This document shows positions 18,083 through 37,572 of a stretch of 64,000 bases of DNA, in pieces; the first letter of the stretch is position 1, and the number at the start of each line of letters is the position of its first letter. The position numbers and the translations under genes were made by a program. Origin of the DNA: an uncultured bacterium (GTDB taxonomy: Bacteria; Oederibacteriota; JAAXVQ01; JAUVAV01); the NCBI GenBank assembly GCA_963710755.1, contig CAVQBK010000003.1, forward strand, positions 211,605 to 275,604, read 5' to 3'. The notes beneath the pieces were generated by a model that ran no database searches, was not told where the DNA came from, and worked only from the letters and a program-made list of their open reading frames with translations.

Positions 18083-20053
18083 ATGTTTGGTAAACTGAGC
18101 CTGGCCGCGCTTCCCCTGAAAGACCCGCTTACGTTTGGCGCTTTTATATTTCTTGTACTGGCCGTCATCGCCGTGGCCCTTCTGATCACCTACCTGCACA
18201 GATGGAGGTGGCTGTGGAAAGAATGGCTGACCTCGGTGGATCATAAAAAAATCGGCGTCATGTATATCGTGGTGGCCAGCATGATGGGGCTGCGCGCTTT
18301 TATTGACGGCGTGATGATGCGCTCCCAGCAGGCCGTGGCCTTTGGCCCGGGCCAGGGACCCTTCAGTCCCGAGCTTTACAACCAGGTGTTCAGCGCTCAT
18401 GGCACCATCATGATTCTGTTTATGGCCATGCCACTCCTGATCGGCCTGATTAATATTGTGGTGCCCTTGCAAATCGGCACCCGCGACGTGGCTTTTCCTT
18501 TCATGAATTCCATCAGCTTTTACCTGTTTGTGGTGGGCGCCGTGCTTGCCAACCTTTCCCTGGGCATTGGGCAGTTCTCCCAAGCCGGGTGGTCCGGCTA
18601 TGCCCCCCTCACGGAAATCGGCTTTTCCCCGGGGGTGGGCGTCGATTATTACATCTGGAGTGTTGAAATATCGGGGATTGGAACCCTGCTCACGGGCATC
18701 AATTTTTTGGTCACCATACTGAGGCAGCGCGCGCCCGGCATGAGTTTGATGAAGATGCCGGTTTTCACCTGGACGGCTTTTTTCAGTTCCGTACTGATCA
18801 TTGGCGCTTTTCCCGTGCTCACCGTGGTCCTGGGACTTTTAGCCCTTGACCGCACTGCGGGCATGCACTTCTTTACCAATGCGCTTGGCGGCAACCCCAT
18901 GATGTATGTGAACCTTTTTTGGGCCTGGGGCCATCCTGAGGTTTATATCCTGATCCTGCCTGCATTTGGAGTATTTGCCGAGACTTCAGCCACCTTCAGC
19001 GGTAACCCCTTGTTTGGCTACAAGTCCGTGGTGATGGCCACCCTGGCCATCGTGGTGCTTTCCTATTCGGTTTGGGTTCATCACTTTTTTACCATGGGCG
19101 CCGGCGGCAATGTGAACGCCGTGTTTGGCATATCGACCATGCTGATTGCCATCCCCACGGGCGTGAAGATATTAAATTGGTTGTTTACCATGTTTCGGGG
19201 CAGACTCCGGTATCATACGCCTGTGCTCTGGACGCTTGGGTTTATGGTGCTCTTTACCATCGGCGGCATGACGGGCATGATGCTCGCCATGCCGCCCGCT
19301 GATTTCGTACTGCATGCCAGCATGTTTTTGATTGCTCACTTTCACAATGTGATCGTCGGCGGTACTGTATTTGGCGCCATGGCCGGTTTCATCTACTGGT
19401 TCCCAAAGGCCTTTGGGTTTAAACTTCACGAGCGCCTGGGCAAATCCGCCTTCTGGCTGTTCGCCAGCGGCTTTGTTCTCACTTTTGGACCGATGTATAT
19501 TCTGGGGTTTATGGGCATGACCCGGCGGCTTAATTATACAGAGAACCCCGCCTGGCGGCCTTTGCTCTGGATAGCGGCCCTTGGCGTGACCGTTTTTGCG
19601 CTCAGCTTACTTACCATGGCCATTCAATTGATCGTGAGCATACGCCAGCGCAAGCAAAACCGGGATCTCACGGGAGACCCCTGGGACGGCCGCACCCTTG
19701 AATGGTCCGTGCCTTCACCGCCACCGAGTTACAATTTTGCCATTATTCCCACGGTCACCGAACGCGATGCGTTTTGGGCGGCGAAGCAAAGCGGCCAAGG
19801 GAAAGCGCCTCAAGACTATAAGGATATTATGGAGCCGTGTAATACGTCGGCCGGTCTTTTTATCGGCGTCTTCAGTCTGCTTTTCGGATTTGCCATGATT
19901 TGGCAGATCTGGTGGCTCGCCATCTTCGGCGTGATCGGTGTTATCGTAACCTTGATTATCCGCACGTCCAATGATCATATTTATAAAATGATAAGCGCTG
20001 AAGAAGTCCGGCGGGAAGACCTGGCCGCCTCAATGGGGCAGGCCGGGCATTAA
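18083..20053 (+). CDS. cyoB: Cytochrome bo3-type ubiquinol oxidase subunit I (heme-copper oxidase)
   Basis: 656 aa polytopic protein with conserved heme-copper subunit I blocks ([33 protein letters not shown]). RBS GAGGAGAG. Confidence 0.9.
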
Positions 20054-20071
20054 GCGAAAAGAGAGGAATTC

Positions 20072-20671
20072 ATGAGCAATTCAACTGTACAAGAGCCCAT
20101 CTACGGGGGGAGCGAAATTGCTTCTACCCGCTTATTCGGCTTCTGGGCTTATATCATGAGTGATTTAGTGCTGTTTGGAACCTTGTTTGTGACTTATGCC
20201 GTTCTTTCCCGGAATTATGCAGGCGGGCCCACGGGAAAGGAACTCTTTAATCTGCGTGGGGTTCTGATGGAAACTTTTTTCCTTCTCACCAGCAGCTTTA
20301 CTTACGGCCTGGCCACCGTATCGGCCGCCAAAGGCAGGCGCGGATGGTTGCTCGGGTTTATGGCCGTCACCTTTGCTCTTGGCGCCGGCTTTGTGGCCCA
20401 CGAAATCCATGAATTCTCAGGATTGGTGGCAGCCGGGCATGGACCGGGGACAAGCGCCTTTTTATCCGCCTTTTTCACGCTCGTGGGGACCCATGGCCTT
20501 CACGTCAGTGTGGGCCTCCTCTGGATGGCGGTCCTGGCCGTACAGCTTGCCGCCAAAGGGCTTACACCGGCCACCAGCATTCGAGTAAAGACGCTGGGCT
20601 TGTTCTGGCACTTTCTGGACATTATCTGGATCTGTCTTTTTACCTTTGTTTATCTTATGGGGGCAATGTAA
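20072..20671 (+). CDS. cyoC: Cytochrome o ubiquinol oxidase subunit III
   Basis: 199-aa membrane protein. Position and size fit, and the C-terminal ...FWHFLDIIWICLFTFVYLMG is typical of subunit III. Confidence 0.8.
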   Translation: MSNSTVQEPIYGGSEIASTRLFGFWAYIMSDLVLFGTLFVTYAVLSRNYAGGPTGKELFNLRGVLMETFFLLTSSFTYGLATVSAAKGRRGWLLGFMAVTFALGAGFVAHEIHEFSGLVAAGHGPGTSAFLSAFFTLVGTHGLHVSVGLLWMAVLAVQLAAKGLTPATSIRVKTLGLFWHFLDIIWICLFTFVYLMGAM

Positions 20672-20998
20672 ATGAATAATCCTTATGTTCCTCACGCCAA
20701 GCCCGGAGAACTCCGGGATTACACCATCGGCTACCTGCTGTCCCTTCTTCTGACCGTGGTGCCCTTTATTCTGGTAATGAATAAGGTGCTTTCCGCAACC
20801 ATGGCCATCGTGGTGATCAGTGCCCTGGCGGTAACGCAAATGGCCGTGCACTTGACCTTATTTCTTCGCCTTCACAAGGCGTCGGACGAGCCCTTCAAAC
20901 TTACCATCTTTTATTATACGCTGATTATTCTGGCCATCTTAGTGGGCGCTTCCATTTGGATTATGCATCATCTGGATATGTATCATATGGTGCCTTGA
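20672..20998 (+). CDS. cyoD: Cytochrome o ubiquinol oxidase subunit IV
   Basis: 108 aa with three TM segments. ATG overlaps the cyoC stop. Confidence 0.75.
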   Translation: MNNPYVPHAKPGELRDYTIGYLLSLLLTVVPFILVMNKVLSATMAIVVISALAVTQMAVHLTLFLRLHKASDEPFKLTIFYYTLIILAILVGASIWIMHHLDMYHMVP

Positions 20999-21045
20999 GC
21001 AAGCTCAAACAACGGCATTGAACAATACGGGAAGGGGTAACAACC

Positions 21046-21990
21046 ATGACATCTTTAAAAGCTTATACTTTACTGGCCTCCATCGCTTTGGCGTCGGTGT
21101 GTATTCTTATGGTTTTGGGAGGCGCTGTAAGCTTCATGGGGGCCGCCAAAGCCATCCCTGATTGGCCCTCAACCTTCGGGAGTATCCTGCCTCCGGCTGA
21201 ACTGGGGGCCTTCGTCGAATACCTGCACCGGGTCATGGCGGTCATTGTGGGTCTGTTGGTCGTGGCCCTGGCCGTCATAGGACTGCTTAAGTTCCGTGCC
21301 CGGCCCTGGCTCCTGGTGCCGCCGCTTCTGACGATGGTATTGCTTGCCGTTGTTTCCACCGTGGGCGCCTTGGTTGTTCTCGGCTCCGTGTCGCCCATCG
21401 TCGCGGCCGTGGATGTAGCCAGTGCCCTGATGGTGCTGGCCTTGATGGTCACCATGGTTCAGGTCGGCCTTTATCTCCTGCGCCATCCTCAGGGCACTAT
21501 CCGCCTTGGCTTCCGGGATCCCTTTTCCAAGTTGGCGCTTAGTGCCACTGCCGTATTGTATGTGGTCTTGTTATCCGGTCTTTCCGTGGGCATCCCCAGC
21601 CCTGCCAACTGCCTGGGCCTGCCCCTGTGGAACCATGCCTTATCCCTGGCCGGCCATGGGTCTTGGCTGCGAACAGGGCACTTCCTTTTATCCAACGTGG
21701 CCGTCGTGCTCGTCTTCCTGGTGGCCATAACGTCCTGGACCCAATCGCGTCTGCAAACCCCACGGCGGTTTTTGGCTACCGCTGCCTTCCTATTGCTGAT
21801 CACCTCCATAGGTGCCAGTGAGCTGGCGGCAGCCCATGGCTTTCCCTGGTCCCTGATGGCCATCCGCGTTTCCACGGCAACCTTGCTTTGGGCCGCGCTC
21901 ACGGCATTGGTGGTTCACGAAGGCTTGCAAGCAGCGCTTCCTGAAACTGAAAAGGAATTAAGTGCTGTTGACAGCCTTAACCTGATATGA
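21046..21990 (+). CDS. ctaA: Heme A synthase-like protein (CtaA/COX15 family)
   Basis: 314-aa polytopic protein with an N-terminal ...AIPDWPSTFG... region and conserved His in TM helices. Confidence 0.55.
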   Translation: MTSLKAYTLLASIALASVCILMVLGGAVSFMGAAKAIPDWPSTFGSILPPAELGAFVEYLHRVMAVIVGLLVVALAVIGLLKFRARPWLLVPPLLTMVLLAVVSTVGALVVLGSVSPIVAAVDVASALMVLALMVTMVQVGLYLLRHPQGTIRLGFRDPFSKLALSATAVLYVVLLSGLSVGIPSPANCLGLPLWNHALSLAGHGSWLRTGHFLLSNVAVVLVFLVAITSWTQSRLQTPRRFLATAAFLLLITSIGASELAAAHGFPWSLMAIRVSTATLLWAALTALVVHEGLQAALPETEKELSAVDSLNLI

Positions 21991-22844
21991 ACCTTTGGAA
22001 AATTTATTCTTCCCTTTCCCGTTTTTATCTTTCTTTGGCCGTGGCCCTTTCCGGCTTGATCGGCTTTATTTTTTATGAGGGCCGGCTTAATTTAAAGGCC
22101 TTCATGCTTTTGCTGGGAATATTTTTGCTTTCCAATGCCGCTTCTGCCTTGAATCAATATCAGGAGCGAGCCTTGGACGCCCTCCTCCCGCGTACCCAAA
22201 ACAGGCCCTTGCCGGCACAGGCTATTTCCATAAAAAGTAGTTGGTTGTTTATATGTTCAACTTGCCTTTCGGGCTTGCTCATTTTACTTTTGGGCGCAAA
22301 TTTATTAACAGCCGTTTTAGGGGCTTTTAATTTGCTGTGGTATGGTGCGGTTTACACGCCTTTAAAAATGAAAACAAAATATGCCGTATTTTTAGGCGCC
22401 ATTTGTGGGGTTATCCCGCCTATCATGGGCTGGACCGCGGCCGGCGGGTCGATGTTTAATTATAAAATTGTCTTTATTGCCTTATTTGTATTTTTATGGC
22501 AAATCCCTCATGTTTTTCTTCTGCATTTAAAATATCAGAATGAGTTTGAATCGGCAAAGATGCCTTTAATTTTATCCACTTCCGACCAGCTTAAAAATAG
22601 AAGGTTGGTGTTTTATTGGATCTTAGCCACGATCTTGTGCACTTTTCTATATCCATTTTTTAATATTTTTAACAAAAGTTGGTTGATCATACTTTTATTA
22701 ATAGTCGATGGGGTTGTTCTTCTTTATTCTTTTTATCACTTGTTTTTCATTCCCAAACTTTCAACCAGCATCAACAAATTAATCCTAAGTTTCCATTTTT
22801 ATCAGCTGATTATTTTTGCATTGATTATGCTGGCAACGGAATAA
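21987..22844 (+). CDS. cyoE: Protoheme IX farnesyltransferase (heme O synthase, UbiA family)
   Basis: LNQYQERALDALLPRTQNRPLP corresponds to the N-x3-(D/E)-x3-D ... RTxNRP prenyltransferase motif. Start overlaps the ctaA stop. The gene is markedly AT-rich relative to upstream cyo genes. Confidence 0.7.
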   Translation: MNLWKIYSSLSRFYLSLAVALSGLIGFIFYEGRLNLKAFMLLLGIFLLSNAASALNQYQERALDALLPRTQNRPLPAQAISIKSSWLFICSTCLSGLLILLLGANLLTAVLGAFNLLWYGAVYTPLKMKTKYAVFLGAICGVIPPIMGWTAAGGSMFNYKIVFIALFVFLWQIPHVFLLHLKYQNEFESAKMPLILSTSDQLKNRRLVFYWILATILCTFLYPFFNIFNKSWLIILLLIVDGVVLLYSFYHLFFIPKLSTSINKLILSFHFYQLIIFALIMLATE

Positions 22845-22935: not shown

Positions 22936-23026
22936 CTGCTCCCCCAAGAAAAGCCGAATCTCGGATGGAGGCCGTCCCTGGGCAGGAGGGGCTATTAAGC
23001 TGTTATGGTGTTAACGTCCTGTTGAC
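22936..23026. repeat. R2 repeat (copy 1): ~90-bp unit ending ATTAAGCTGTTATGGTGTTAACGTCCTGTTGAC
   Basis: Aligns by eye with 24644-24733 and partly with 28629-28691. Its 3' end resembles the MITE terminal inverted repeat. Confidence 0.55.
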
Positions 23027-23031
23027 TTCAA

Positions 23032-23409
23032 TCACGATCTGGCGAGACCACGTTCTAATATAGCAATCACTTCCGTATTCAGGCTGACGCCTTCCCGCTC
23101 TGCCTCCAAGGCAAGACGTTCATGCAGCGTTTTCGGAACCCGCACATTGAATTTTCCACTATATTTTTCCCGGGGCAATGGGATCGATCGTCCTCGCCTT
23201 AATTCTTCCTCCAGCCAAACCTCCTTGGCTTCGGCAATCATTTTTAACGCCTCTTCCTCCGTCTCACCTTGTGATACACAGCCGGGCAGATCAGGGATGA
23301 CCGCAACATAACCGCCGTCTTGATTATCCGGAATTAAATCCACACGGTACTTCAATTTAATATACTTTAAGAGATCGGCTTTGATATTCCTACCAGCCAT
23401 GGTTATCAT
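23032..23409 (-). CDS. hicB: HicB-family antitoxin (N-terminal HicB fold plus C-terminal RHH)
   Basis: 125 aa. C-terminal FNVRVPKTLHERLALEAEREGVSLNTEV is a ribbon-helix-helix. Overlaps the hicA stop by 4 nt. Confidence 0.75.
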   Translation of the reverse strand: MITMAGRNIKADLLKYIKLKYRVDLIPDNQDGGYVAVIPDLPGCVSQGETEEEALKMIAEAKEVWLEEELRRGRSIPLPREKYSGKFNVRVPKTLHERLALEAEREGVSLNTEVIAILERGLARS

Positions 23410-23648
23410 TCCTCTCCGCTAAGATAGCGCGCAAGCACAGTTCGCACTTGTTCCACGTAACAGCGCTTTACAGGATTATTCCTGGGCAATGTGATGGTGG
23501 TATATTTCTGATGTGAAAAAACCGTATGGCTGCCTTTGCCCTGTCTTTCCACATAGCCCAGTTTCAACAATACTTTGACAATTTCCGAGTACCTAATCTC
23601 TCTTCTCTTATCCATGACTGCAAATAAGAGTTTATCCAGCTTGGTCAT
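23406..23648 (-). CDS. hicA: HicA-family mRNA interferase toxin
   Basis: 80 aa with GKGSHTVFSH (the HicA GSHxxF motif). Confidence 0.75.
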   Translation of the reverse strand: MTKLDKLLFAVMDKRREIRYSEIVKVLLKLGYVERQGKGSHTVFSHQKYTTITLPRNNPVKRCYVEQVRTVLARYLSGEE

Positions 23649-23846
23649 GAAATGTCCTTCTTTTTATGGTACTATATTCGGTACTACATATCAATAGCTT
23701 AATAATTTAAATAGCCGCGCGCCAAAACAGGGATGCCGGCGCCAAGGTTTAAATTATTGGACCGGAAAACAGCAATTTTCTTTCGAAAAATGTTAATTTT
23801 TTCCCTTCCTCCCCGTCCCCCGTGCCTCCCTGTGAATAGTCCTTTT

Positions 23847-24164
23847 TTATCTTGTCCCGTTTTTTAATCTCTTCACTTCTTCCACCACCGCCATCTCTAT
23901 GACCGTCCGCAAGCTCCACACAATCTCATTGACCATGGTTAGATCCATCTCCTCCGGACAGGCCGCCACGGGGTTGGCCTCCATCATACATGTGTACTCC
24001 CCGGCCCAATGAAAGATAGGAATCTCCTTGAGCAGGATACGGTTGTCAATGGTCACCCGGGCTATGCCGATAATAGCGGATAAGTTCGAAGTGCTGGGGT
24101 AGATGGTGATGGAGAGATTGGGGGATTGGGGCATGGGGCGTTCCTTGTGTGGCTTATTTTCCAT
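23847..24164 (-). CDS. Small conserved hypothetical protein (copy 1 of a duplicated gene; paralog at 27828-28115)
   Basis: 105 aa. From MPQSPNL onward it is ~96% identical to the 95-aa paralog (4 aa differences). Divergently paired with an XRE-family regulator. Confidence 0.5.
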   Translation of the reverse strand: MENKPHKERPMPQSPNLSITIYPSTSNLSAIIGIARVTIDNRILLKEIPIFHWAGEYTCMMEANPVAACPEEMDLTMVNEIVWSLRTVIEMAVVEEVKRLKNGTR

Positions 24165-24252
24165 ATTATGCCAATCCTTCGGTTTAAGGTCAAGGTTTTT
24201 ATGTGGCTAACTTTCTGTTTGCTAATTTTCTGCAAGGAATTAGATTACTGCC

Positions 24253-24564
24253 ATGCCTACTAAGTCTAAAGAATCAAACATCATTCAAAAGAGCATGGGC
24301 CATGTCATTCGGACATTGCGTTTCAAGCTGAATCTTACCCAAAGTCAGCTGGCCGAAAAAGCCGGCCTGGACCGCACCTATATTGGGGATATTGAAATCG
24401 GCGGCCGCAATATCGCCCTGCGCACTTTCTTTCGCCTAGCTGCAGCCCTTGAGGTGTCGCCGGACAAGTTCATGAAATTATTGACCAAACAACTGGAAGC
24501 GGATCATAAGGGATTTGATTGGAAGAAACTCATGGAAAAAGATAAGTGGGTGGAGAGAGGGTAA
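24253..24564 (+). CDS. XRE-family (Cro/C1-type HTH) transcriptional regulator, copy 1
   Basis: 103 aa. HTH core LTQSQLAEKAGLDRTYIGDIEIG. C-terminal ~35-aa extension ends KDKWVERG, shared with copy 2 and with the fragment at 26571-26710. Confidence 0.7.
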   Translation: MPTKSKESNIIQKSMGHVIRTLRFKLNLTQSQLAEKAGLDRTYIGDIEIGGRNIALRTFFRLAAALEVSPDKFMKLLTKQLEADHKGFDWKKLMEKDKWVERG

Positions 24565-24643
24565 AGGTAGGTATCAAAATAACAGCATGTATTTCCCCTC
24601 GCCCCGTGCCAGCGGGGAGAGGTTGGGTGAGGGGCCCAGTATA
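24565..24643. repeat. Conserved 3' tail of the XRE gene with a G/C-rich imperfect hairpin (CCCCTCGCCCCG-TGCCAGC-GGGGAGAGG...GGTGAGGGG); also at 28549-28628
   Basis: Near-identical between the two XRE copies although the XRE coding regions have diverged. Confidence 0.5.
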
Positions 24644-24733
24644 CTCCTCCCCCAAAAAAGTCGAATCTCGGGTGGATGCCGTCCCTGGGCAGGAGGGGCA
24701 ATTAAGTTGTTATGTTGTTAACGTCCCGTTGAC
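24644..24733. repeat. R2 repeat (copy 2), ending ATTAAGTTGTTATGTTGTTAACGTCCCGTTGAC (MITE-like terminus)
   Basis: Aligns with 22936-23026. The last ~35 bp match the right end of the MITE family. Confidence 0.55.
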
Positions 24734-24772
24734 CCGTATTTCCGGCGCATTTTTTAAAGAAAGGGGCAAACC

Positions 24773-26269
24773 ATGAAAAAGTTAACTTATAGCCTGCTCT
24801 TATGTGGGCTTATATTGGATGGTTCCGTTCACGCTGAACTCGTCGAAAGAGGAACGCTCTCCGGCATCGTAACCACCTTTGACTCGGACAACGCAGGCGT
24901 TCTGTACCGAAACAGTGCCTCTGAGTATTGGCACCTAACTCGAGGCGGCGACGCCAAAAAACTTATCGCCAATTCACATTCTGAACGTGTGACATCGGTG
25001 TCACCTCAGCGCACTTACGCCCTTCTCCGCGGAATGGAAGGCATTCACATTGTGAAACTCAAAACCGGAGAAAAAATCCCCATAAAATTTAAGTTGAATT
25101 TTTCTCATCATGCTACCTGGCTTTTGGATGAAAGTAAATTCGCCTTTGTATCACGAAACAAGAAAGAAAGTGAACGCCCGGTTCTTTCTAATTTTACTGA
25201 AAATCTCTATCTTTTTAATGTTATTGAGTATGTCAAGGATTACAAGAATCGGTCACTCGCGGATATCGGTAATTATACAACAAAACTTACAACGTATACC
25301 AAAGGCTTTTGGATAGACAATCTCGCCTGGGCTACCGATCAGAAGAGACTTGCCTTTGGAACCTACCATCCGGAGAAAGTGAACAATCAATCTAAGTATT
25401 TTCATACGATAGAAGTTGTTGATATCTCCAGTGAAATGATTTCTACTGTAGCCAAGATGCCCAGCGATGGAATCTATTGGACCGGAAAGGATTCGCTGGC
25501 GTTTTTCGGCTATACCAAAGCAGGTGGTTGGACGCTCTACGCCAAAGAAGGCCAAGGGCCTGTAAAGCAACTCGTTCAGGGACGACCACACCATTGGGCT
25601 TTTTCCGAACAAGAGCGGAGTTATTTATACGACATGCCGCCTCACTCATCAAATCCGGGAAACGAACACTTTTGGAAGAATTTGGATAATAAAAGCATGA
25701 CCAGGATAGTAGGTGCTCTAAGGAATCCGATGTTATCCAAGGACGGAAAGTGGCTCTCATTCCAAGTCCCTGATACACTGGACAAAGCCATGGCCATCTT
25801 GGTTGAAACAAAACTCATCTCAGAGCGTGCCGTTAATGGGACAGTCAAGGTTGAGGACCTCATCCAAATACGTATGGGAGAAAGGCCATCAGTTTATGAC
25901 GTGAAGTCGTCACCCCTCCCTCAGCCATCGGTCACTTTTCGTTTGAATGATGTACAGGCCAATCAGGAATTCATCTCGTATGAGCTACATCTAAAGAATG
26001 AATTCAATGACAGGTACTTGCGTTTTAAATTTGTAAACCAACAGCAGATTGCCGGCAAAATTACAGACGCAACTGGCAATGAAGTCCTATCATGGCCGAG
26101 GATCGTTCAACCTGCCGTTTCAGCTTTCCTCGTGGGGCCGCATGAAACCAAGGTGTTCAGCGGACGTACCTCTTCCTCGTTGAAACCGGGTCAGACCTAT
26201 ACCGTCGCCTTTGAACTGATAGGATACCAAAACATTCCGACAGTCCAAACACAATTTACAGTCGACTAG
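24773..26269 (+). CDS. Secreted hypothetical protein (signal peptide; 498 aa), lower-GC
   Basis: N-terminal MKKLTYSLLLCGLILDGSVHA signal. No recognisable catalytic motif. Composition differs from the core genome. Confidence 0.5.
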   Translation: MKKLTYSLLLCGLILDGSVHAELVERGTLSGIVTTFDSDNAGVLYRNSASEYWHLTRGGDAKKLIANSHSERVTSVSPQRTYALLRGMEGIHIVKLKTGEKIPIKFKLNFSHHATWLLDESKFAFVSRNKKESERPVLSNFTENLYLFNVIEYVKDYKNRSLADIGNYTTKLTTYTKGFWIDNLAWATDQKRLAFGTYHPEKVNNQSKYFHTIEVVDISSEMISTVAKMPSDGIYWTGKDSLAFFGYTKAGGWTLYAKEGQGPVKQLVQGRPHHWAFSEQERSYLYDMPPHSSNPGNEHFWKNLDNKSMTRIVGALRNPMLSKDGKWLSFQVPDTLDKAMAILVETKLISERAVNGTVKVEDLIQIRMGERPSVYDVKSSPLPQPSVTFRLNDVQANQEFISYELHLKNEFNDRYLRFKFVNQQQIAGKITDATGNEVLSWPRIVQPAVSAFLVGPHETKVFSGRTSSSLKPGQTYTVAFELIGYQNIPTVQTQFTVD

Positions 26270-26350
26270 TTCCTGCTGGGCATATGTGGATATGGGACGA
26301 ACCTAACTAATGATTCCTGAGAAGTAAGTACCTTTTTTGAAGTCGAATAA

Positions 26351-26569
26351 GTTCTAGGGGACGTTAACAACATAACAACTTAATAGACAGTTCCAAATAA
26401 ATGCAGTTATAATTACACCATGCCACGACAAAAACGACTGAATTTACCAGGGTAACAGACATTTAAGTGAGCGCCAAAGAACAAGCGGTATCGAAATGGT
26501 TCGAAAAAGGAAGGGAGATTTGTGAACGAAAAAATATAAAGTTGTTAAGTTGTTAACGTCCCGTAGAAC
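26351..26569. mobile_element. MITE-like non-autonomous element, copy A (~219 bp, 21-bp TIRs GTTCTAGGGGACGTTAACAAC / GTTGTTAACGTCCCGTAGAAC)
   Basis: Near-identical copies at 37354-37572 and 38987-39204 in the opposite orientation. Terminal inverted repeats seen directly. No coding capacity. Confidence 0.7.
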
Positions 26570-26570
26570 A

Positions 26571-26710
26571 CTTTCTTTCGCCTAGCTGCAGCCCTTGAGG
26601 TGTCGCCGGACAAGTTCATGAAATTATTGGCCAAACAACTGGAAGCGGATCATAAGGGATTTGATTGGAAGAAACTCATGGAAAAAGATAAGTGGGTGGA
26701 GCGGGGTTGA
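26571..26710 (+). pseudogene. 3' fragment of an XRE-family regulator gene (third, truncated copy)
   Basis: Matches 24427-24564 of XRE copy 1 with a few substitutions. Starts 2 bp after the right TIR of MITE copy A, so the 5' part and the partner gene are missing. Confidence 0.65.
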
Positions 26711-26734
26711 TGGGGGGATAATTTCTTTGCTGGT

Positions 26735-27637
26735 TCAAACAAAATATCCGTCTTTCTTTAAAAACCGCTCATGTTTTTTCCTGTTACAATAAGGTGCATA
26801 AATTATTCCATCCCACTTCCATATTTTTTGATCATTAAATATAATGTCTATATTCATAGTTGTGTTTAATATTTTCTCCCACAGGTTTTTATAGGGATTA
26901 ATGCACAACGAAGATTGAAAGCAATCTTTTGCAGTACAAGTATTGTTAGCCGTATATTCATCAAAAGACTTCGAAACGATCCCCCCGATTATATCTATTA
27001 TTTTGATCGCTCTAGCTTCATCTGAATATTTTTCTGATTTTTTGGGAATAAAATAAGGGCCGCCCAGTATTACTTTTTTTTCTCGCGCCAAATCATGAAT
27101 CTGTACCTTGATTTTATCCTGATACTTACGGTCATTAATATCAATGAACCAATCCACTTTGGGGTTATTGAACAAATATGATCCTGGCTGATGGAAATTA
27201 AGTTTTTTTACAAAAGGAAATATTCTTTTAAATCCATATAAATAACCATTTTGTGCATGCCCGGCTATTATTGCTTTGTCTGTCAATTTTTGTCCGCATT
27301 CTACTTCTGATTTATTTAGAATATAAAAACCTAGAAGGCAAATATAGTCTCTGTTATTTCCCGATAAAAGCTCCGTAACAAAACCCTCAAGGGCACAAGG
27401 ATCGTCTTTAGCGACTTTCTTTAACTCAGACCATTTTCGCAAACGGGATTTAAGATATTTTCTTGAGCAGGAGCGGGCGATTTCAATGAATTTCTTCATC
27501 GATTCTTCGCCGGGAAAGCACGCCATTGAAATGATGTAATTTCTTGTGGCTCCAGAATAGGTTGTTCCCAAACATCCTGATTCATCGGAGATAACGATGA
27601 GTCGCAACTTTTTACCCCAAAAAAATAGCCCCGTCAT
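26735..27637 (-). CDS. DUF3800-family protein (AT-rich, 300 aa)
   Basis: N-terminal LRLIVISDESGCLG fits the DUF3800 hhYhDESG start. Strongly AT-rich compared with surrounding DNA. Confidence 0.45.
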   Translation of the reverse strand: MTGLFFWGKKLRLIVISDESGCLGTTYSGATRNYIISMACFPGEESMKKFIEIARSCSRKYLKSRLRKWSELKKVAKDDPCALEGFVTELLSGNNRDYICLLGFYILNKSEVECGQKLTDKAIIAGHAQNGYLYGFKRIFPFVKKLNFHQPGSYLFNNPKVDWFIDINDRKYQDKIKVQIHDLAREKKVILGGPYFIPKKSEKYSDEARAIKIIDIIGGIVSKSFDEYTANNTCTAKDCFQSSLCINPYKNLWEKILNTTMNIDIIFNDQKIWKWDGIIYAPYCNRKKHERFLKKDGYFV

Positions 27638-27827
27638 ACCCTCTCAAAGAGAGGTGAGTTCTCGACAAGGGCGAGAACCGACGGGGCTAATATAGGACAC
27701 CAATAATTTCTAAATAGAGTATATCTCAGCTTTTTATTGCCTACAAGTATAATTTTAAAGTTTTTATGATCCCCTTAAATTATCGGCATAATATTGCTGA
27801 TCCTAAATTTAATATGCCTATTCCCTT

Positions 27828-28115
27828 TTATCTTGTCCCGTTTTTTAATCTCTTCACTTCTTCCACCACCGCCATCTCTATGACCGCCCGCAAGCTCCAC
27901 ACAATCTCATTGACCATGGTTAGATCCATCTTCTCCGGGCAGGCCGCCACGGGCTTGGCCTCCATCATACATGTGTACTCTCCGGCCCAATGAAAGATAG
28001 GAATCTCCTTGAGCAGGATACGGTTGTCAATGGTCACCCGGGCTATGCCGATAATAGCGGATAAGTTCGAAGTGCTGGGGTAGATGGTGATGGAGAGATT
28101 GGGGGAGTGGGGCAT
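27828..28115 (-). CDS. Small conserved hypothetical protein (copy 2; paralog of 23847-24164)
   Basis: 95 aa. Nucleotide identity to copy 1 runs from ~27826 through the start codon (6 substitutions). Confidence 0.5.
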   Translation of the reverse strand: MPHSPNLSITIYPSTSNLSAIIGIARVTIDNRILLKEIPIFHWAGEYTCMMEAKPVAACPEKMDLTMVNEIVWSLRAVIEMAVVEEVKRLKNGTR

Positions 28116-28236
28116 AAAAATCTTCCTTTTGTTACTAATTTGCTACCAAGAGTATATCCAATTCATAAAAGGAGATCAAGCCAATTGTACATAACTTGCC
28201 ATTTACTTATTTTCTACAAACCTCTAATGTTGCCCT

Positions 28237-28548
28237 ATGCCTTCAAAATCTAAAGAGAAAAATATAATCCAAGTTACCTTAGGTCATATTATAAGGGACT
28301 TACGCTACAAGCTTCACCTTACTCAAGAACAGTTGGCCGAACGGGCTAGTGTAAACCGTTCCTATATTGCTGATCTTGAATTAGGCGGACGCAACATGGC
28401 CTTTCGCAATATTCTACGGCTATCCGTCGCCCTGGAAATCACGCCAGATAAATTATTCAAATTGCTTCTCAAACGACTTGAAACAGATCAAAAAGGATTT
28501 GATTTGAAGAAGTTTATGGAAAAAGATAAGTGGGTGGAGAGAGGGTAA
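28237..28548 (+). CDS. XRE-family HTH transcriptional regulator, copy 2 (diverged)
   Basis: 103 aa, ~60% identical to copy 1 over the HTH but with an identical last 11 codons and identical downstream tail. Confidence 0.7.
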   Translation: MPSKSKEKNIIQVTLGHIIRDLRYKLHLTQEQLAERASVNRSYIADLELGGRNMAFRNILRLSVALEITPDKLFKLLLKRLETDQKGFDLKKFMEKDKWVERG

Positions 28549-28628
28549 AGGTAGGTATCAAAATAACAGCATGTATTTCCCCTCGCCCCGTGCCAGCGGG
28601 GAGAGGTTGGGTGAGGGGCCCACTACAC

Positions 28629-28691
28629 TCCTCCCCCAGGAAAAGTCACGTATCAGGTGGATACCGTCTCTGTACACAATAGGTAATTAAG
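28629..28691. repeat. R2 repeat (copy 3, degenerate)
   Basis: CTCCTCCCCCAGGAAAAGTC... aligns with the 5' part of the other R2 copies and ends ...GGTAATTAAG. Confidence 0.4.
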
Positions 28692-28724
28692 CAAGACCGT
28701 CCCCTTTATACAAAAGAAAAATGC

Positions 28725-29028: not shown

Positions 29029-32000
29029 TTAGGAGGCCAACCGAACTTCGCGAAATGCCTCGCTAAGCTGAAGCGCTGCACTTCGCCTGTCGCCCATGTC
29101 GACTAGAATGTCGAGAATCCGCAGGAACTTCTGAGCAAGAGCCATTTTCATGGGCGTATCACGATGTGCGAAGTACTGAACAAGCTCCGCAATACGTGCC
29201 GGAATGAACGTTCCATGCCAACCCTTTAGGTTGTCGGGTCCGTTATTAATAATCGAGAGCACTTGGTCCGCGAAGGCTTCTGTTGGATAGTTTGCCCTTG
29301 CTCGTTCACAGAGCGTCAAAAATGGGGCCATCACAGAAGCGGCCCATCCGCTGGCGCGAACGAATCGATTGATCAGGGGTAGGATACGGTCAATTTCTGA
29401 CCAGTCACCATTGACGTAGCGAGCAGCTAAGTCCGCGCCTTCGACGGAGACAAACATTAAAGTGCGAACAAGATCAGGCTGATCGAAACCTGTGAGTTCA
29501 CCACTCCGGTAAGTGTCGCGTTTGAAAACGGAATCCTGTAAAAGACGTTCAAGACACAGGTTCAGCATCACGATTGCATCGGCTGGAACGACCGGCGCAT
29601 CGTACACATAGGCGCAGACATAAGTACTCGCGAAGGGGGAAAGGAGAGCCCAGCAATTGTCGCCTTTGAGGTTCAGAATCGGGTCGAGGAAGCGGGTTTG
29701 AAAGTCGGCAAGCGGGATAAAACCAGCCACCTGGCCCAGCCGCGATCCAAGCGTATGCGTCCACTCGAAAATCTGGGTTGATGATTTATTTCGGCGTCCA
29801 GGCTTCACCCATGCTGGCTCATTCTTTTGATTGGTCCAGTCGAGAACACCAGCGAGGAAATCGAGAAGTGAGTTCATTGCGCTACTTTGCAGAACCTTAT
29901 CAAAGGGGATGTGCTTAAGAATTTTTGCTGCCTGCTTGGAATGCCAAATAACGTTTGGTTCACCCCATGCCTCAGCTGCGTCGGTAGCATCATCAGCATC
30001 GATATCTTCATAGCTTTGATGCCCACGTCGGCTCTTTCCTTGTTCGACTTTCACCCAGGCTGGAGGCGGTAACGGAAGGGAAGCCCATCCGCTTCCATTC
30101 TCGTAGAACTCAAGCGCCGCATCGATCGCCGCTTGCGCTTCACTCATCGAATGGAGTGCTTCATTGTGTTGACGGGCCTGGCTGCGCGGCCGTAGTGGGA
30201 CGTGACAGAGCGAAAATGCTAAGACCAGCGCCGCCCAAGTCAATCTGGGATCCTTGGACCAAAGCTTACACGATTCTTCAAGCGCGGCTAATGAAACAAT
30301 CTCCAATGGGTGCGCAATCAGCCCAAGAAGGTCGCGAATCGCACCGCGTTCCGCTGTACTTTCGCGGATATCCGCTGCGATGCCGCGCGCCACGTAGATC
30401 GCCTGATGCCATGGGATAATGGAACTGGGAGACTGCATCAAATCGGGCTTTTCTGGCAGAAGGATAGCACGTTTTAATACATCACGAGCCCACTTGAGAT
30501 CTTCTTGACTACACCCTTTTCGAAATGTGAGCGCGATGGCAGCGGTGGCGGCAACTGCACCTCGACGTATACCCAACTGCACTTCTTCGTTCTCATCTTT
30601 CGGTTGTTTGAATAAATCGTTGGCGTCAGCTTCTCTGGCCATTGCAATGGCATCTTGAATATCGTAACTGTCGTTGAGTCCCTTCTTTTCAAATGACTTG
30701 CACGCCCACGTCCACAAGCTGGTCAGATTAAGATATTTAGTTGCCTCTTCGACCCTGGCGATATTTTCAGGTTCAGCATCGGAAGGACTAACGTGGACAA
30801 TTGTTAGCTGGTCTGAATCCTTTTCCGTGCGGTAGGCCTGATAGTTGTGCGGGTCTGTAAACTCGGCATATTTAATGGCTTGTTCCATGAGGTGTTTCCT
30901 TACCTCTGGAATATTGCGCTGCTCCTCGTACTGAAAAGGCAAATTATTCTTGAAATCGAGAATCGCATTGCGGGTTTGGTTACGGATCGGTCCTGTCGCA
31001 AAAACAAACATAGGCACCATCCAACTAAGCTGCTTTTTGCGAACCGGCCTGGCATTTGCTGCTTGGATCGCATCAACGTGAGGTTTATCGGTGCGAGATG
31101 TAAAACCTATTAGATTAGTAGTCGGAGCAATATCTTGCTCCCATCGATGTTGGTCGGCAGCTAGCAAACGTTGTGAGATGAAGAGTGGCAATGTCGTTTC
31201 GGACACAGTTTCGGTATTGAGCGCAAGCATTGCCGCAATGCCTAGGATGGCGATGCATTCGTTTCCCTCTATGATTTGCTGGATTATCTCATCAACGGGC
31301 CGACCACGCTCAAGCTCGGTGAAGCACCATTCTTCGAGTGCCATAAACCCGCAGCCGATGGCATTGGGCGCCCATGTAGAACGAAACCAAAGATACTCCC
31401 GGTCAGTACCCCAGAATTTCTGGGTACCCCAGGGAAACCTCAGTTCAAGCGGTATAGGTGTGCCGGGGGGATTTTCATGATATCGTGAATAACAATGTAG
31501 TTGTCGCCACGCGGTCATCGCGTGATTGCATAGTTCCCGAAGGAGTCTCAAAGCCTCGGCGGGTGAAAACTTAAAAAGTGAGTAAAAGGGCTCTCGAAGC
31601 GGTGAAGGAGGCAAGAAACTTTGATGGTCATCGTGGATCGATAGCCTTTCACAGTCGTGGAAACTAAAATCACCTATGGCTCGCAGAGAATGTCCGAACG
31701 AAAGTGACATTTGTTCTTGGCGCGTGCGCTCAGCTTTCGGCTTGGCAAGGACTGTTTTGCGCCACTCGGCCGCACGATGAAGTTCCTGTCTTTCGCGGGC
31801 GACTTGCTCGTCTGGTAGTTCCTCTCGCAGGAACGCCAATGAAAGTTCGACGACCGACTGAGGGAGTGATTGGGCGAGGACAGGTGAGTAGACGATGATG
31901 TCGTGAAAAGCGTCGTCACGGATACGCTCTGAGTTGGCCACCCGCTGCAAGTAGTCGGCGGCAAAGATCGGCTCAGATCTCGACGATTTTAAGAGGAGTT

Positions 32001-34365
32001 GAGAGAGGGATTTTTGAAAGCCACCGGGGTCGGGCATGGTGGCGAGCCAGGTGGCGCATTGCTGCAGCAGAGCGCGAGACGTTGGATTGGGCAAATCTGC
32101 AAGTGCATTTTGCCAGACCTCGAAGATAGCGACGATCTCCGGATAGAGCCTCTGCGGTATATCCGAAATGCGTCTGAGGATAAAGTTGATGAGGCGACGC
32201 CACGCGGCGAAGTCGGAAGGCCAACCGAGAAGATCAGCGAATCGTTGGCGTTGATCCGGTGGAAGCGCACCAGCGAGGATGTTCGCATTCGGAGTGGTCT
32301 TTTCAGCTTGAAACCAGACAAGCACCTTTCTGAAAAGCCGGAAGTCGTCGGCAAAGATGGCCGTCGCAAACTGGTCCTCATCAGCTTCGAACTTCGCAGT
32401 TCCGAGGGGACCGACTAGCCAAGCACGCAGCCATTGTGATCTAAGGTCCGAACCCTCGGTTTTGGCGAGGTAGGCGCACCATTCTTTTCCCTGTGTGTAC
32501 TCCCATTGGGAAGAGAGTTCGACGACGCGCGCGACCGCTGGCGGCTCCCCGGAAGCCTTAATCTCTTCCATCCATTGGGCCCCGCGATCAGCCAAGACAT
32601 AGAAAAAGGCCCATTCGAAGAAGATATCGTGGGCGAAGCGGACGGATATCCCTTCACGAGCATTTTGGAGTATGCCATCTGATCTTAGGTCATCGATGTG
32701 TGCGACTGAAGTGAGCTGGCTAAGGCAAATCGGCTGGCTAAGATTGCGAGCACGAACAGAAGCTAAATTGAGCAGCGCTCGCTGGCGTTCAATTGCGTCT
32801 TGTCCATTCTCATTATAACCGCCCCGCTGCCACCAATTCTCGATCAAATCTACTTCAGATTGAGGAGCGAATGTCGGGGCGCCGGGGTCGGCTACGTAAC
32901 TTTGGTTTAGCACTTTCGCAAAAAAGGGTCGTCGGACAATCTCTTTCACCTGGGGTAATCCAAACAGAAGTGGTCTCAGGTGTGGTTTGGCTTTTGCGAG
33001 TAGCTCAGCCTCTTCGTCGCTCAGCTGATCAACGCTAAGCGTCTCGACATTCAGGACATCAAGGAACTCGCCTAACCAATTGCGAAGAACTTCAATACCG
33101 GTGTTGCGAAGGGAGACGACGGTTCGCCAGTTGTCAAGCAGCGGTGACTCCACAATGGTGCGGATTACGTCGAGAATGATGGGCTGATGCTCCTTCTCAA
33201 TACGATCGATTGCATCGATGAACAAAATGGAAGTGCCAGATGCTCCGATCTCAACGAGAAGTTGCTCCAAGGGAGCACCAGAGAGACCCTGCGAAGTCGC
33301 ATAACTGATCCAACTGGTGCCTTCGAGCTGTTCGGCTTTGAGGAAGAAAACTGGCCCGCGTACTAGCGCGCGCTCTACCGCTCGCCTCACTACGACTGAT
33401 TTGCCACTTCCCGGCAGGCCGCGAACCTGGACAACACGGGCTGTAGTTAGCTTGGCGTCCAGGTCTCCTAGGAGCGAGGCTCGGTCGAGCTTTGATCCGC
33501 CAACATCGTCAGGAATGAGGTTTGTGTAACTCTTTGTGAGTTCCGTTAATCTGTCGAGATCAAGACGCAAGGAGGTCGCGCCGCGAAAGCGTACCACAGG
33601 GGAGATCATGCGCACAAGCCGCGCGCGGTCAAACTGGCCCGATTTGCCTGCTGAAGCGCGGGCTAACTGAACGATCTTTGACCAAACGAAGGGTGCCTTG
33701 GCTGCGTCATCGGGCACGAGGCAATCTCCGATGCGATTAATTGCATCCGGGGGATCAGTGGCGCCTTCACGAAGGAAATCGAATTGGATCAGAACGAAGT
33801 GCGCAAGGAACCGATGCACTTCTTCATTTGTGCACGGCGCCCCCTTTGCATCTTCCATCAGAGCAACTACGTTGTTCTTGACTGTTTTGAGCTCAGCACT
33901 AGCGCCGCCATCCTTCGCAAAGCGAGCGTTAAAATGATCCGCGGTCAGACTTTCACGGGCCCAATCGCAAAGGGTTTTAAGCGCTCGTTCTTTGGCGGGG
34001 GTAACCGTGCCAACTGCTGACCCGTAGCGGTCGACGTTGATGCGGAAGTCAGCTTTTTTGAGGGTAGCCCAACTGTTGCGGATAATGTCGCGAAAGTCGG
34101 TGTTAGTTTCCGCCTTGCTTATTGTGAGCGAACGCTTCACCTGGAGGCTAAGGCGAGCGGGTTTCTTTGCTGCATCTTCAAAATCAACAATCACATCATC
34201 GAGCGGTTCGCCGAAGTCGCGCTGTTGAACCGACACGCGAACAACGGTTCGATCATCAATGCCGGGTGCATATGCTTCGGCTAGAAGCGCGGTGAGATAG
34301 AACGCGGCCGCGTCACCCTCAAAGGTAAAACCTTCACCGCCGGCGAGTTCAGTTGATTGTGGCAT
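29029..34365 (-). CDS. Giant STAND-type P-loop NTPase with N-terminal Cap4-like (DUF4297) nuclease-like domain and ~1350-aa helical C-terminal region; putative Avs/bNACHT-like antiviral sensor-effector (1778 aa)
   Basis: N-terminus GGEGFTFEGDAAAFYLTALL...DDVIVDFED...LSLQVKRS fits the DUF4297 GGxGFxFQ start plus a D...(D/E)xK-like core. Walker A VRGLPGSGKSVV at aa ~306-313 and Walker B ILFIDAIDRIE at aa ~369-379. The long C-terminal region has no other catalytic motif. Confidence 0.6.
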   Translation of the reverse strand: MPQSTELAGGEGFTFEGDAAAFYLTALLAEAYAPGIDDRTVVRVSVQQRDFGEPLDDVIVDFEDAAKKPARLSLQVKRSLTISKAETNTDFRDIIRNSWATLKKADFRINVDRYGSAVGTVTPAKERALKTLCDWARESLTADHFNARFAKDGGASAELKTVKNNVVALMEDAKGAPCTNEEVHRFLAHFVLIQFDFLREGATDPPDAINRIGDCLVPDDAAKAPFVWSKIVQLARASAGKSGQFDRARLVRMISPVVRFRGATSLRLDLDRLTELTKSYTNLIPDDVGGSKLDRASLLGDLDAKLTTARVVQVRGLPGSGKSVVVRRAVERALVRGPVFFLKAEQLEGTSWISYATSQGLSGAPLEQLLVEIGASGTSILFIDAIDRIEKEHQPIILDVIRTIVESPLLDNWRTVVSLRNTGIEVLRNWLGEFLDVLNVETLSVDQLSDEEAELLAKAKPHLRPLLFGLPQVKEIVRRPFFAKVLNQSYVADPGAPTFAPQSEVDLIENWWQRGGYNENGQDAIERQRALLNLASVRARNLSQPICLSQLTSVAHIDDLRSDGILQNAREGISVRFAHDIFFEWAFFYVLADRGAQWMEEIKASGEPPAVARVVELSSQWEYTQGKEWCAYLAKTEGSDLRSQWLRAWLVGPLGTAKFEADEDQFATAIFADDFRLFRKVLVWFQAEKTTPNANILAGALPPDQRQRFADLLGWPSDFAAWRRLINFILRRISDIPQRLYPEIVAIFEVWQNALADLPNPTSRALLQQCATWLATMPDPGGFQKSLSQLLLKSSRSEPIFAADYLQRVANSERIRDDAFHDIIVYSPVLAQSLPQSVVELSLAFLREELPDEQVARERQELHRAAEWRKTVLAKPKAERTRQEQMSLSFGHSLRAIGDFSFHDCERLSIHDDHQSFLPPSPLREPFYSLFKFSPAEALRLLRELCNHAMTAWRQLHCYSRYHENPPGTPIPLELRFPWGTQKFWGTDREYLWFRSTWAPNAIGCGFMALEEWCFTELERGRPVDEIIQQIIEGNECIAILGIAAMLALNTETVSETTLPLFISQRLLAADQHRWEQDIAPTTNLIGFTSRTDKPHVDAIQAANARPVRKKQLSWMVPMFVFATGPIRNQTRNAILDFKNNLPFQYEEQRNIPEVRKHLMEQAIKYAEFTDPHNYQAYRTEKDSDQLTIVHVSPSDAEPENIARVEEATKYLNLTSLWTWACKSFEKKGLNDSYDIQDAIAMAREADANDLFKQPKDENEEVQLGIRRGAVAATAAIALTFRKGCSQEDLKWARDVLKRAILLPEKPDLMQSPSSIIPWHQAIYVARGIAADIRESTAERGAIRDLLGLIAHPLEIVSLAALEESCKLWSKDPRLTWAALVLAFSLCHVPLRPRSQARQHNEALHSMSEAQAAIDAALEFYENGSGWASLPLPPPAWVKVEQGKSRRGHQSYEDIDADDATDAAEAWGEPNVIWHSKQAAKILKHIPFDKVLQSSAMNSLLDFLAGVLDWTNQKNEPAWVKPGRRNKSSTQIFEWTHTLGSRLGQVAGFIPLADFQTRFLDPILNLKGDNCWALLSPFASTYVCAYVYDAPVVPADAIVMLNLCLERLLQDSVFKRDTYRSGELTGFDQPDLVRTLMFVSVEGADLAARYVNGDWSEIDRILPLINRFVRASGWAASVMAPFLTLCERARANYPTEAFADQVLSIINNGPDNLKGWHGTFIPARIAELVQYFAHRDTPMKMALAQKFLRILDILVDMGDRRSAALQLSEAFREVRLAS

Positions 34366-35256: not shown

Positions 35257-35403
35257 GTTTGGTTAGACCAGCGAATCCTAATTTCCTTCCAGTTTTTTGT
35301 TTTCATTAAGCTTATAAGCTTACTCCGGCCCCCAACCCCATTTCAACTCTGGACGCTCGATATTCGCGCTGTTTCATGAAACAAACAATGGGTTGTGTAT
35401 ATC

Positions 35404-35432
35404 TTGACAACCAATAGTGTCTGCGCCATAAT
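35404..35432 (+). promoter_or_regulatory. Sigma70-type promoter: TTGACA (35404-35409), 17-bp spacer, CATAAT (35427-35432)
   Basis: Consensus-like hexamers with ideal spacing, ~40 bp upstream of the ArsR-family gene start. Confidence 0.5.
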
Positions 35433-35439
35433 TAGATGG

Positions 35440-35455
35440 TTAGATAACTATCTAA
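35440..35455 (+). promoter_or_regulatory. Putative ArsR/SdpR operator: palindrome TTAGATA-AC-TATCTAA
   Basis: 7-2-7 perfect inverted repeat just downstream of the -10 and overlapping the predicted transcription start, a classic autorepressor arrangement. Confidence 0.5.
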
Positions 35456-35472
35456 CAACAAAAGGAGTGCGG

Positions 35473-35781: not shown

Positions 35782-35786
35782 GGAAC

Positions 35787-37353: not shown

Positions 37354-37572
37354 GTTCTACGGGACGTTAACAACTTAACAACTTTATATTTTTTCGTTCA
37401 CAAATCTCCCTTCCTTTTTCGAACCATTTCGATACCGCTTGTTCTTTGGCGCTCACTTAAATGTCTGTCACCCTGGTAAATTCAGTCGTTTTTGTCGTGG
37501 CATGGTGTAATTATAACTGCATTTATTTGGAACTGTCTATTAAGTTGTTATGTTGTTAACGTCCCCTAGAAC
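37354..37572. mobile_element. MITE-like element, copy B (inverted relative to copy A)
   Basis: Reverse complement of copy A with TIRs GTTCTACGGGACGTTAACAAC / GTTGTTAACGTCCCCTAGAAC. Confidence 0.7.

Follow-up and report, generated by a model that had tools for sequence, protein, structure and literature searches.

We analysed a stretch of 64,000 nucleotides (nt; the window) from an uncultured bacterium of the Oederibacteriota (assembly GCA_963710755.1, contig CAVQBK010000003.1, positions 211,605 to 275,604) and found in it two copies of a compact module, in which a small open reading frame (ORF) on the minus strand lies divergent from a plus-strand gene for a 103-amino-acid (aa) regulator of the XRE type. 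Copy A consists of the small gene at 23847-24134 and the XRE gene at 24253-24564, and copy B of the small gene at 27828-28115 and the XRE gene at 28237-28548, so that the ORF list, the repeat finder and the pairwise alignment of the window place the two modules 3981-3984 nt apart. We propose, with a probability of roughly 45%, that each copy is a self-contained two-gene switch gated by a regulator akin to the controller (C) proteins of restriction-modification (R-M) systems, with the product of the small gene, the payload, as a probably harmful and normally repressed nucleic-acid-binding protein.

Two divergent modules with conserved ends and a diverged core

The similarity between the two copies changes abruptly along their length. 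The small ORFs are identical at 282 of 288 nucleotides (97.9%; 96% at the protein level), identity is 51% in the intergenic region and 67.8% of nucleotides over XRE codons 1-91 (66% of amino acids over the whole XRE protein), and a perfect match of 107 nt (24532-24638 and 28516-28622) then covers the final 10 XRE codons, the stop codon and 74 nt downstream. At the other end the block of identity stops with the small gene, because only 42% of the positions past its stop codon agree. Measured against the XRE core, the small ORF (Fisher p = 3e-24) and the 3' block (p = 2e-11) both stand out in their identity, and chance is thereby excluded for this mosaic. Synonymous divergence (dS) between copies A and B is 0.03 in the small gene and 1.7 in the XRE gene, and therefore either the flanks were homogenised recently or the core was replaced.

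Relatives were found on further contigs, with labels between L001 and L012, and intact small genes are present at 11 loci, a count that takes in both window copies. Sliding-window identity across these loci showed breakpoints that vary between locus pairs, and module ends that are both conserved at about 100%, one formed by the small gene's final 30 nt with some 40 nt beyond it and the other by the XRE end with a hairpin of the repetitive extragenic palindrome (REP) type. The conserved tail 3' of the small-gene stop (AAAAAGGACTATTCACAGGGAGGCACGGGGGACGGGGAGG; 23807-23846, minus strand, about 40 nt) is 80-100% identical in A, L001, L002 and L003 and is not present in copy B. The mosaic arose by recombination or gene conversion, and in copies A and B the payload and the 3' flank were homogenised recently while the control core diverged anciently.

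A preliminary description of the window, made from the letters alone, had reported the duplicated divergent pair and its uneven conservation, and the ORFs, the 96% identity of the small proteins and the divergence of the XRE core and intergenic region (51-68% identity) agree with it. The identical 3' block, given there as 11 codons and about 80 base pairs (bp), is present with slightly different limits. Its proposal of gene conversion or recombination is supported by the dS contrast, by the pair-dependent breakpoints and by the swapped cassettes at orthologous loci described below. The pattern of a conserved small protein beside a diverged regulator holds for A and B and fails as a general rule, since L006 carries an A-type XRE (88% of amino acids) with a small protein of 54% identity. 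Beyond A, B and a third, truncated XRE fragment, no further copies of the module are present in the window.

The regulator resembles R-M controller proteins

Both regulators match the HTH_3 domain of Pfam (E 4.6e-14 for copy A and 2.2e-10 for copy B), and the best PADLOC models for them are those named Control_protein (E 7e-16 and 4e-15). In the PDB the best match to XRE is C.BclI (2b5a, E 2.8e-10), and C.Esp1396I (3clc and variants, E 7e-10) and C.AhdI (1y7y, E 2.9e-9) were also matched; the recognition-helix signature LDRTYI..IE..RN is common to XRE and the C proteins. As a small HTH_3 protein closest to known C proteins, XRE is, on sequence grounds, a member of the R-M controller protein family. 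The idea that entry 3g5g is C.Csp231I was dropped, the entry being tagged C.Esp1396I. The XRE genes are under purifying selection, with ratios of nonsynonymous to synonymous divergence (dN/dS) of 0.07-0.16, and of 0.13 for A versus B.

The XRE gene of copy A has no Shine-Dalgarno sequence, and a -10-like hexamer (TAGATT, 24241-24246) lies 6 nt ahead of its ATG. The same arrangement, a -10-like hexamer that ends 5-6 nt before the XRE ATG without a Shine-Dalgarno sequence, is found at 8 of the 11 loci, and the XRE mRNA is thus probably leaderless. Leaderless transcripts and their translation have been described as a common hallmark of C genes (PMC2632904). A linked restriction endonuclease (R) or methyltransferase (M) gene was found neither among the window neighbours, by Pfam, NCBIfam and PADLOC, nor as a methylase or nuclease domain in any related locus, and the linkage that ties C proteins to such genes, of which the R gene is usually co-transcribed, is missing from all the loci at hand. 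At L008 (505-2188) the XRE gene is followed, after a gap of 260 nt, by a same-strand gene for a 402-aa SIR2_2 protein; at no other locus does a candidate effector occupy the R position. The C-terminal residues EKDKWVERG of the window XREs are kept with synonymous differences, and without a REP element, in L006 and in the third XRE fragment, and the idea that the identical XRE tail is merely part of a REP or transposable element was dropped for this reason.

The small gene and its product

The ORF of copy A (minus strand) can be read up to 24164, which would give 105 aa, and this upstream start is probably unused. The ATG at 24164 precedes the expected start of the transcript, because the -10 element of the conserved promoter ends at 24165, and a Shine-Dalgarno sequence (AAGGA) stands 6-9 nt ahead of the ATG at 24134. 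The latter ATG, shared with copy B, is the likely start, and it gives copy A the same 95 aa as copy B (27828-28115, minus strand); the 105-aa start of copy A in the preliminary description is probably wrong.

By its conservation the small ORF is a real coding gene, as had been assumed: dN/dS against four relatives is 0.22-0.57, and a profile search enlarged the family to 23 proteins, which are 91-98 aa long. In the 20 full-length members 16 residues never vary (M1, G23, R26, V27, D30, I33-E37, P39, V56, A57, C59, D64 and R76). The family is rare and lineage-restricted, with about 23 clusters among 5.8 billion. Apart from the query itself, an exhaustive HMMER search of 1.84 billion representatives returned five matches, of which one was a relative of full length, three were fragments and one, P0014, was a spurious repeat protein. 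Scans of metagenome and viral contigs returned no relative, a scan of genome contigs returned L001 again only, and there was no match in plasmid or phage collections (tblastn) or in IMG/VR.

The protein had been described as being of unknown family, and profile and structure searches leave it there. No match was found in Pfam, NCBIfam, PADLOC or PHROGs, permissive thresholds included, and nine members gave none in Pfam at E values up to 10; sequence and profile searches of the PDB returned nothing but a meaningless match to ComP (E 0.33). In an AlphaFold2 model built on nine sequences (mean predicted local confidence, pLDDT, 82; predicted template-modelling score, pTM, 0.72) two helices come after four or five strands. 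The protein has a SpoVG-like fold and is, by sequence, not a member of the SpoVG family (PF04026), from which it differs in its motifs (ARVxIDxxILLKE and VAxCP..D) and in its genomic context. SpoVG is a small nucleic-acid-binding protein of Firmicutes and spirochaetes that binds both DNA and RNA. Literature searches on SpoVG-like toxins or on XRE partners returned nothing relevant.

Promoters and putative operators

A sigma-70-like promoter precedes the small gene in both copies on the minus strand, at 24165-24193 in copy A (TTGACC-17-CATAAT, with a preceding TG; 10/12 matches) and at 28151-28179 in copy B (TTGATC-17-TATACT). It keeps this position across the aligned loci, and an AAGGA Shine-Dalgarno sequence comes after it. 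Counting a site as promoter-like if it has at least 8/12 matches and a -10 end 30-35 nt ahead of the start codon, we found one at the small gene in 7/11 loci. In copy A a putative operator repeat (GCTTATTTTC, 24152-24161) lies just downstream of the small-gene -10, and two direct repeats (GCTAACTTTCTG, 24206-24217, and GCTAATTTTCTG, 24221-24232) lie over the weak promoter of XRE, where an inverted repeat, CTAATT-N10-AATTAG (24222-24243), is a further candidate operator. Copy B has putative operators at 28132-28141 (TTACTAATTT), 28190-28199 (CATAACTTGC) and 28203-28212 (TTACTTATTT), and the three-site layout of copy A recurs in B, L002, L003 and L006. The repeats of A, B and L002 have the core CTWAYTT in common and differ mainly in their flanking bases. 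This common core and the purifying dN/dS between the two XREs do not support the earlier suggestion that A and B have been under selection for regulator specificity.

At the loci with short XREs the palindrome differs from locus to locus: 12+12 nt over the small-gene -10 in L001, 18 nt between the small-gene -35 and -10 in L005, 10+10 nt in the core promoter and ending at the -10 in L008, and 13+13 nt (GCTAACTATAGTC-TGTA-GACTATAGTTAGC) in L010 and L012, there upstream of a weakly defined small-gene promoter and over a -35-like hexamer of XRE. Repeats or a palindrome overlap or adjoin the small-gene promoter in all 11 intact loci. The published layout of the operators of C proteins, the C-boxes, is GACT-N3-AGTC-N4-GACT-N3-AGTC with a tGTa centre (PMC2175313), and the palindrome of L010 and L012 is a near-canonical C-box pair that includes the TGTA centre and has an inner spacer of N2, not N3.

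Regulator and payload reassort between loci

All 11 intact small genes face a divergent XRE gene of 69-103 aa, and among the examined loci no intact small gene was found without one. The two partners do not diverge together. Between L006 and L012 the small proteins are 80% and the XREs 38% identical, and between A and L001 the values are 78% and 34%; conversely, the small proteins of L010 and L012 are 52% identical with XREs at 89%, and those of A and L006 54% with XREs at 88%. L005 is 99% identical to the window through the adjacent hicAB genes up to about 23812 and then continues with a 49%-identical small protein and an unrelated XRE of 74 aa, which puts the breakpoint of the replacement just past the conserved tail of about 40 nt. 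L006 and L012 have the same flanking genes (KilA-N/ORF6N on one side and, on the other, a gene that we take to be YwbE-like) around different cassettes of XRE and operators. The regulator and the payload thus reassort freely, and within a narrow lineage homologous recombination exchanges each without the other.

Two related loci are decayed. In L007 an IS200-like insertion cuts the small gene and leaves XRE intact, and in L009 both genes are broken; this decay is compatible with a harmful payload.

A proposed controller-gated switch and its alternatives

In the mechanism that we favour, a weak promoter and a probably leaderless mRNA would supply a low level of XRE, which would bind the repeats or palindromes of the 90-120-bp intergenic region. 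These putative sites overlap the promoter of XRE, and they either overlap the small gene's strong sigma-70 promoter or lie next to it; by binding them XRE would regulate its own synthesis and keep the small gene off. The difference between a strong small-gene promoter and a weak XRE promoter fits a payload that needs repression, and so do the TA (toxin-antitoxin) and defence genes around the modules, their place in a low-GC island and the decayed copies. The 95-residue alpha/beta protein, with its SpoVG-like fold, would most likely bind nucleic acid. Its target would be some constant one, unrelated to the specificity of the regulator and distinct from the operators, since operators of unrelated types accompany a conserved payload. 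Unregulated expression of the small gene would be harmful, and the pair would form a transcriptionally gated addiction or exclusion module that puts a new payload under the C/R logic known from R-M systems, its control cassette (XRE and operators) and its payload being swapped independently by homologous recombination. We consider the regulatory architecture, as proposed, to be rather likely; the toxicity of the payload, for which the evidence is circumstantial, we hold to be doubtful. The sequences themselves show the gene pair, its conserved promoter, the operator-like repeats, the affinity of XRE to C proteins, the reassortment and the mosaic, and from these we infer repression by XRE, the leaderless mRNA, nucleic-acid binding and toxicity.

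Several observations weigh against this proposal. The similarity of the modelled fold to SpoVG is modest, a profile alignment to SpoVG sequences with hhalign finds the same register at a probability of just 14.5-14.9%, and by sequence the small protein has no match to the SpoVG family in Pfam and none to SpoVG in the PDB. The window copies carry direct repeats of the type GCTWAYTTTC and no canonical C-boxes, and XRE-A and XRE-B may recognise each other's operators, in which case the two copies would cross-regulate. At most loci the R position downstream of XRE is empty, and the analogy with R-M systems is to that extent incomplete; some modules (L008, L010) adjoin housekeeping genes. The 11 loci are short metagenomic contigs that probably come from one lineage, and they are not independent. 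Lastly, the R-M analogy itself would make a divergent gene repressed by a C protein a protective one and not a toxic one. The small protein could accordingly serve in immunity, in anti-defence or as an inhibitor, expressed early and then shut down by XRE like the M genes under C control, with nothing toxic in the module; this reading, which is drawn by analogy, appears quite unlikely to us.

Divergent genes with three repeated sites between them could also be a bistable switch of the CI/Cro or DicA/DicC kind, in which the small protein would be a second regulator or an anti-repressor at shared operators and would set the expression of adjacent genes (hicAB, the 300-aa gene or KilA-N). The SpoVG-like fold would suit such a role, XRE has weak NCBIfam matches to DicA and RstR, and same-strand genes lie downstream of the small gene in several loci: hicAB in A and L005, the 300-aa gene in B and KilA-N/ORF6N in L006 and L012. 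A second regulator should co-vary with its operators, and the small protein does not, one payload clade being found beside four kinds of operator and XRE that are unrelated, and a single XRE type beside payloads that are only 54% identical. Moreover, the downstream genes are different or convergent in L001, L002, L003 and L010, hicAB has a promoter-like site and an inverted repeat of its own, and PHROGs, the phage and plasmid collections and IMG/VR provided no phage context. With neither the co-varying partner nor the phage surroundings of a CI/Cro immunity switch, we regard this explanation as unlikely.

The preliminary description had likened the module both to controller proteins and to toxin-antitoxin (TA) or abortive-infection switches. 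The first likeness stands, through the PDB and PADLOC matches and the C-box-like operator of the relatives; the reading as a classical TA pair fares worse. In a type II pair XRE, besides repressing transcription, would bind the small protein directly, possibly with its C-terminal tail, and so neutralise it, for which one may cite weak NCBIfam matches to the antitoxins HipB, HigA and Y4mF, the TA-rich neighbourhood and the conservation of EKDKWVERG at the protein level, with synonymous changes in L006 and the third fragment. Yet that tail is absent from the XRE partners of L001, L005, L008 and L010-L012, the two genes are divergent with separate promoters, and thus not co-transcribed, in 11/11 loci, and searches of Pfam, NCBIfam, PADLOC, PHROGs and the PDB place the payload in no known toxin family. 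The signal of co-evolution that such a pair should leave is missing as well, reassortment having decoupled the partners (38% versus 80%, 89% versus 52% and 88% versus 54% identity). Given this reassortment, an antitoxin that acts by protein contact and has co-evolved with the payload is unlikely, and we consider a type II pair very unlikely overall.

Finally, the modules might be non-functional leftovers, regulatory stumps of a decayed R-M system or mobile element that were copied passively through rearrangement at the repeated elements. Sorokin et al. proposed that many C genes outside R-M loci are remnants (PMC2632904), and the region is full of REP copies and of miniature inverted-repeat transposable elements (MITEs), with a truncated third XRE among them. 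Both genes are nevertheless under purifying selection (dN/dS 0.07-0.16 for XRE and 0.22-0.57 for the small gene), and at 11 loci the pair is intact and has a promoter-like site or palindromic operators, and an R or M gene occurs at none of them; we consider passive survival highly improbable.

Relation to known systems

C proteins are the textbook timing device of R-M systems. The window XREs resemble those of R-M systems (C.PvuII, C.Esp1396I, C.BclI, C.AhdI) in their small size, in the signature LxRTYI..IE.G.RN, in a probable leaderless start and in putative operators just upstream of their own gene, and the L010/L012 site, ACTATAGTC-TGTA-GACTATAGT, is almost GACT-N3-AGTC-TGTA-GACT-N3-AGTC. 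They differ in that no restriction or methylase gene is present at any locus and that the gene under presumed control is a divergent 95-aa orphan; compared with C.Esp1396I, the window XREs, at 103 aa, have a tail that is about 22 residues longer. Sorokin et al. (2009) found only about 23% of new C-family genes in R-M loci, recorded cases in which two C genes lie within 3 kb and asked whether C genes outside R-M loci also control toxic genes (PMC2632904). The module is a case of that class; its conserved partner family, defined here along with its reassortment with the control cassette, was not described there.

Lambdoid imm regions and the rstR/ig-2 region of CTX-phi are heteroimmune cassettes, with a diverged repressor and operator core between near-identical flanks and with co-resident copies that carry different repressors. 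The module likewise has a diverged core of repressor and operators between near-identical flanks, and its two co-resident copies carry different repressors. It differs in having no phage genes and a partner that is not a replication or Cro-type gene, and the NCBIfam match of XRE to RstR is weak (33.6 bits against a cut-off of 80), too low for membership by score.

What is new here is a defined, conserved and previously unclassified partner family, the evidence for independent movement of control cassette and payload, and the presence of two copies within 4 kb. At about 0.9 kb the module is a compact and testable case: it has two genes, its promoter and operator region is defined, variants with swapped regulators occur naturally, and one genome carries two copies. 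Should the payload prove toxic or defensive, the known range of TA and defence systems would gain a small effector fold that is new to it, and control cassettes would be seen to move between payloads as independent units. The module may even be the first defined C-protein-gated toxin or anti-phage effector outside R-M systems, a lethal or abortive payload of SpoVG fold with an 'immunity type' given to each copy by interchangeable cassettes, which we consider somewhat unlikely; were a C-gated effector confirmed, it would answer the 2009 question of what C proteins outside R-M systems control. If the payload is harmless, the module is just a rare, lineage-restricted regulator with an orphan gene.

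Repeated elements and genomic neighbourhood

Beyond XRE-A come a double hairpin of the REP type and then an 85-nt MITE-end element (24565-24733, plus strand; folding energy -35.6 kcal/mol, z = -2.5), a stretch whose first 74 nt are identical to copy B and whose MITE-end part is 89% identical to 22942-23026. XRE-B is followed by a REP-like hairpin and a degenerate MITE-end element (28549-28700, plus strand). The GC-rich double hairpin itself (CCCCTCGCCCCGTGCCAGCGGGGAGAGGTTGGGTGAGGGG, at 24595-24634 and 28579-28618) is identical in four loci (A, B, L002 and L003), and a similar motif, GGCACGGGGGACGGGGAGG, is found past the opposite end of the module. Rfam returned nothing in the window.

The third XRE copy is an orphan 3' fragment (26569-26713, plus strand) that comprises codons 58-103 with its own stop codon, is 96% identical in nucleotides to 24423-24567 and is not followed by a REP hairpin. 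Its start coincides with the right inverted repeat of the 219-bp MITE (26351-26569; 35-nt arms, 91% complementary) that truncates it, and the adjacency noted in the preliminary description is thereby confirmed. Elements of this family, which measure about 219 bp and have terminal inverted repeats of 35 nt (GTTCTAGGGGACGTTAACAACATAACAACTTAAT...), are present in three full copies in the window (26351-26569, 37355-37571 and 38987-39203), and two 85-nt half-MITEs (22942-23026 and 24649-24733) bracket hicBA, small gene A and XRE-A in direct orientation. The same element lies 3' of XRE in L002 and 3' of hicB in L005. Fragments of IS200/RAYT-like Y1 transposases were found in L001 and in L007, and in the latter the small gene is broken by one of them. 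Both ends of the module may be hot spots of recombination or transposition; a transposable unit with inverted ends was considered and rejected, there being no terminal inverted repeat past the small gene.

Across the loci, the TA and defence-type neighbours of the modules comprise HicAB (twice), HepT/MNT, AbiEii, SIR2_2, Schlafen/AlbA_2, an Avs4-like NTPase, Panacea and Fic proteins, and KilA-N/ORF6N genes stand beside the modules in L006 and L012. Directly downstream of small gene A is a TA pair of HicA (80 aa) and HicB (125 aa; 23032-23648, minus strand), 99% identical to that of L005. An operon of the module with hicAB was rejected, given the promoter-like site and inverted repeat of hicAB and the different or convergent neighbours at other loci. 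Between the two modules lie a gene for a 498-aa protein with a signal-peptide-like N-terminus (24773-26269, plus strand) and, on the strand of small gene B and downstream of it, a gene for a 300-aa orphan (26735-27637, minus strand). Neither protein matches a known family, and each is a singleton cluster in a collection of 15 billion protein sequences; the motif IVISDESG at the N-terminus of the 300-aa protein is reminiscent of DUF3800. On the far side of copy B, a 1778-aa STAND-type NTPase is encoded at 29029-34365 (minus strand). Its ATPase region is weakly Avs4-like (97 bits in NCBIfam against a cut-off of 1500), its N-terminus matches DUF626_VIII of PADLOC (E 2e-26), and the protein probably serves in defence, as an unclassified type.

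The modules belong to a low-GC island (22900-44200; 0.36-0.49 versus 0.52-0.58) that is dense in TA and defence-type genes. Further along it are ArsR and SdpI genes (35395-36440), a SocA/Panacea gene (38083-38640) with a 121-aa partner, and three genes for Fic-domain proteins (39688-44147). The island starts right past a cytochrome oxidase operon (COX2/1/3, CtaA and CtaB, 17201-22844), upstream of which an 831-aa protein with an eCIS_core domain is encoded at 13947-16442 (plus strand).

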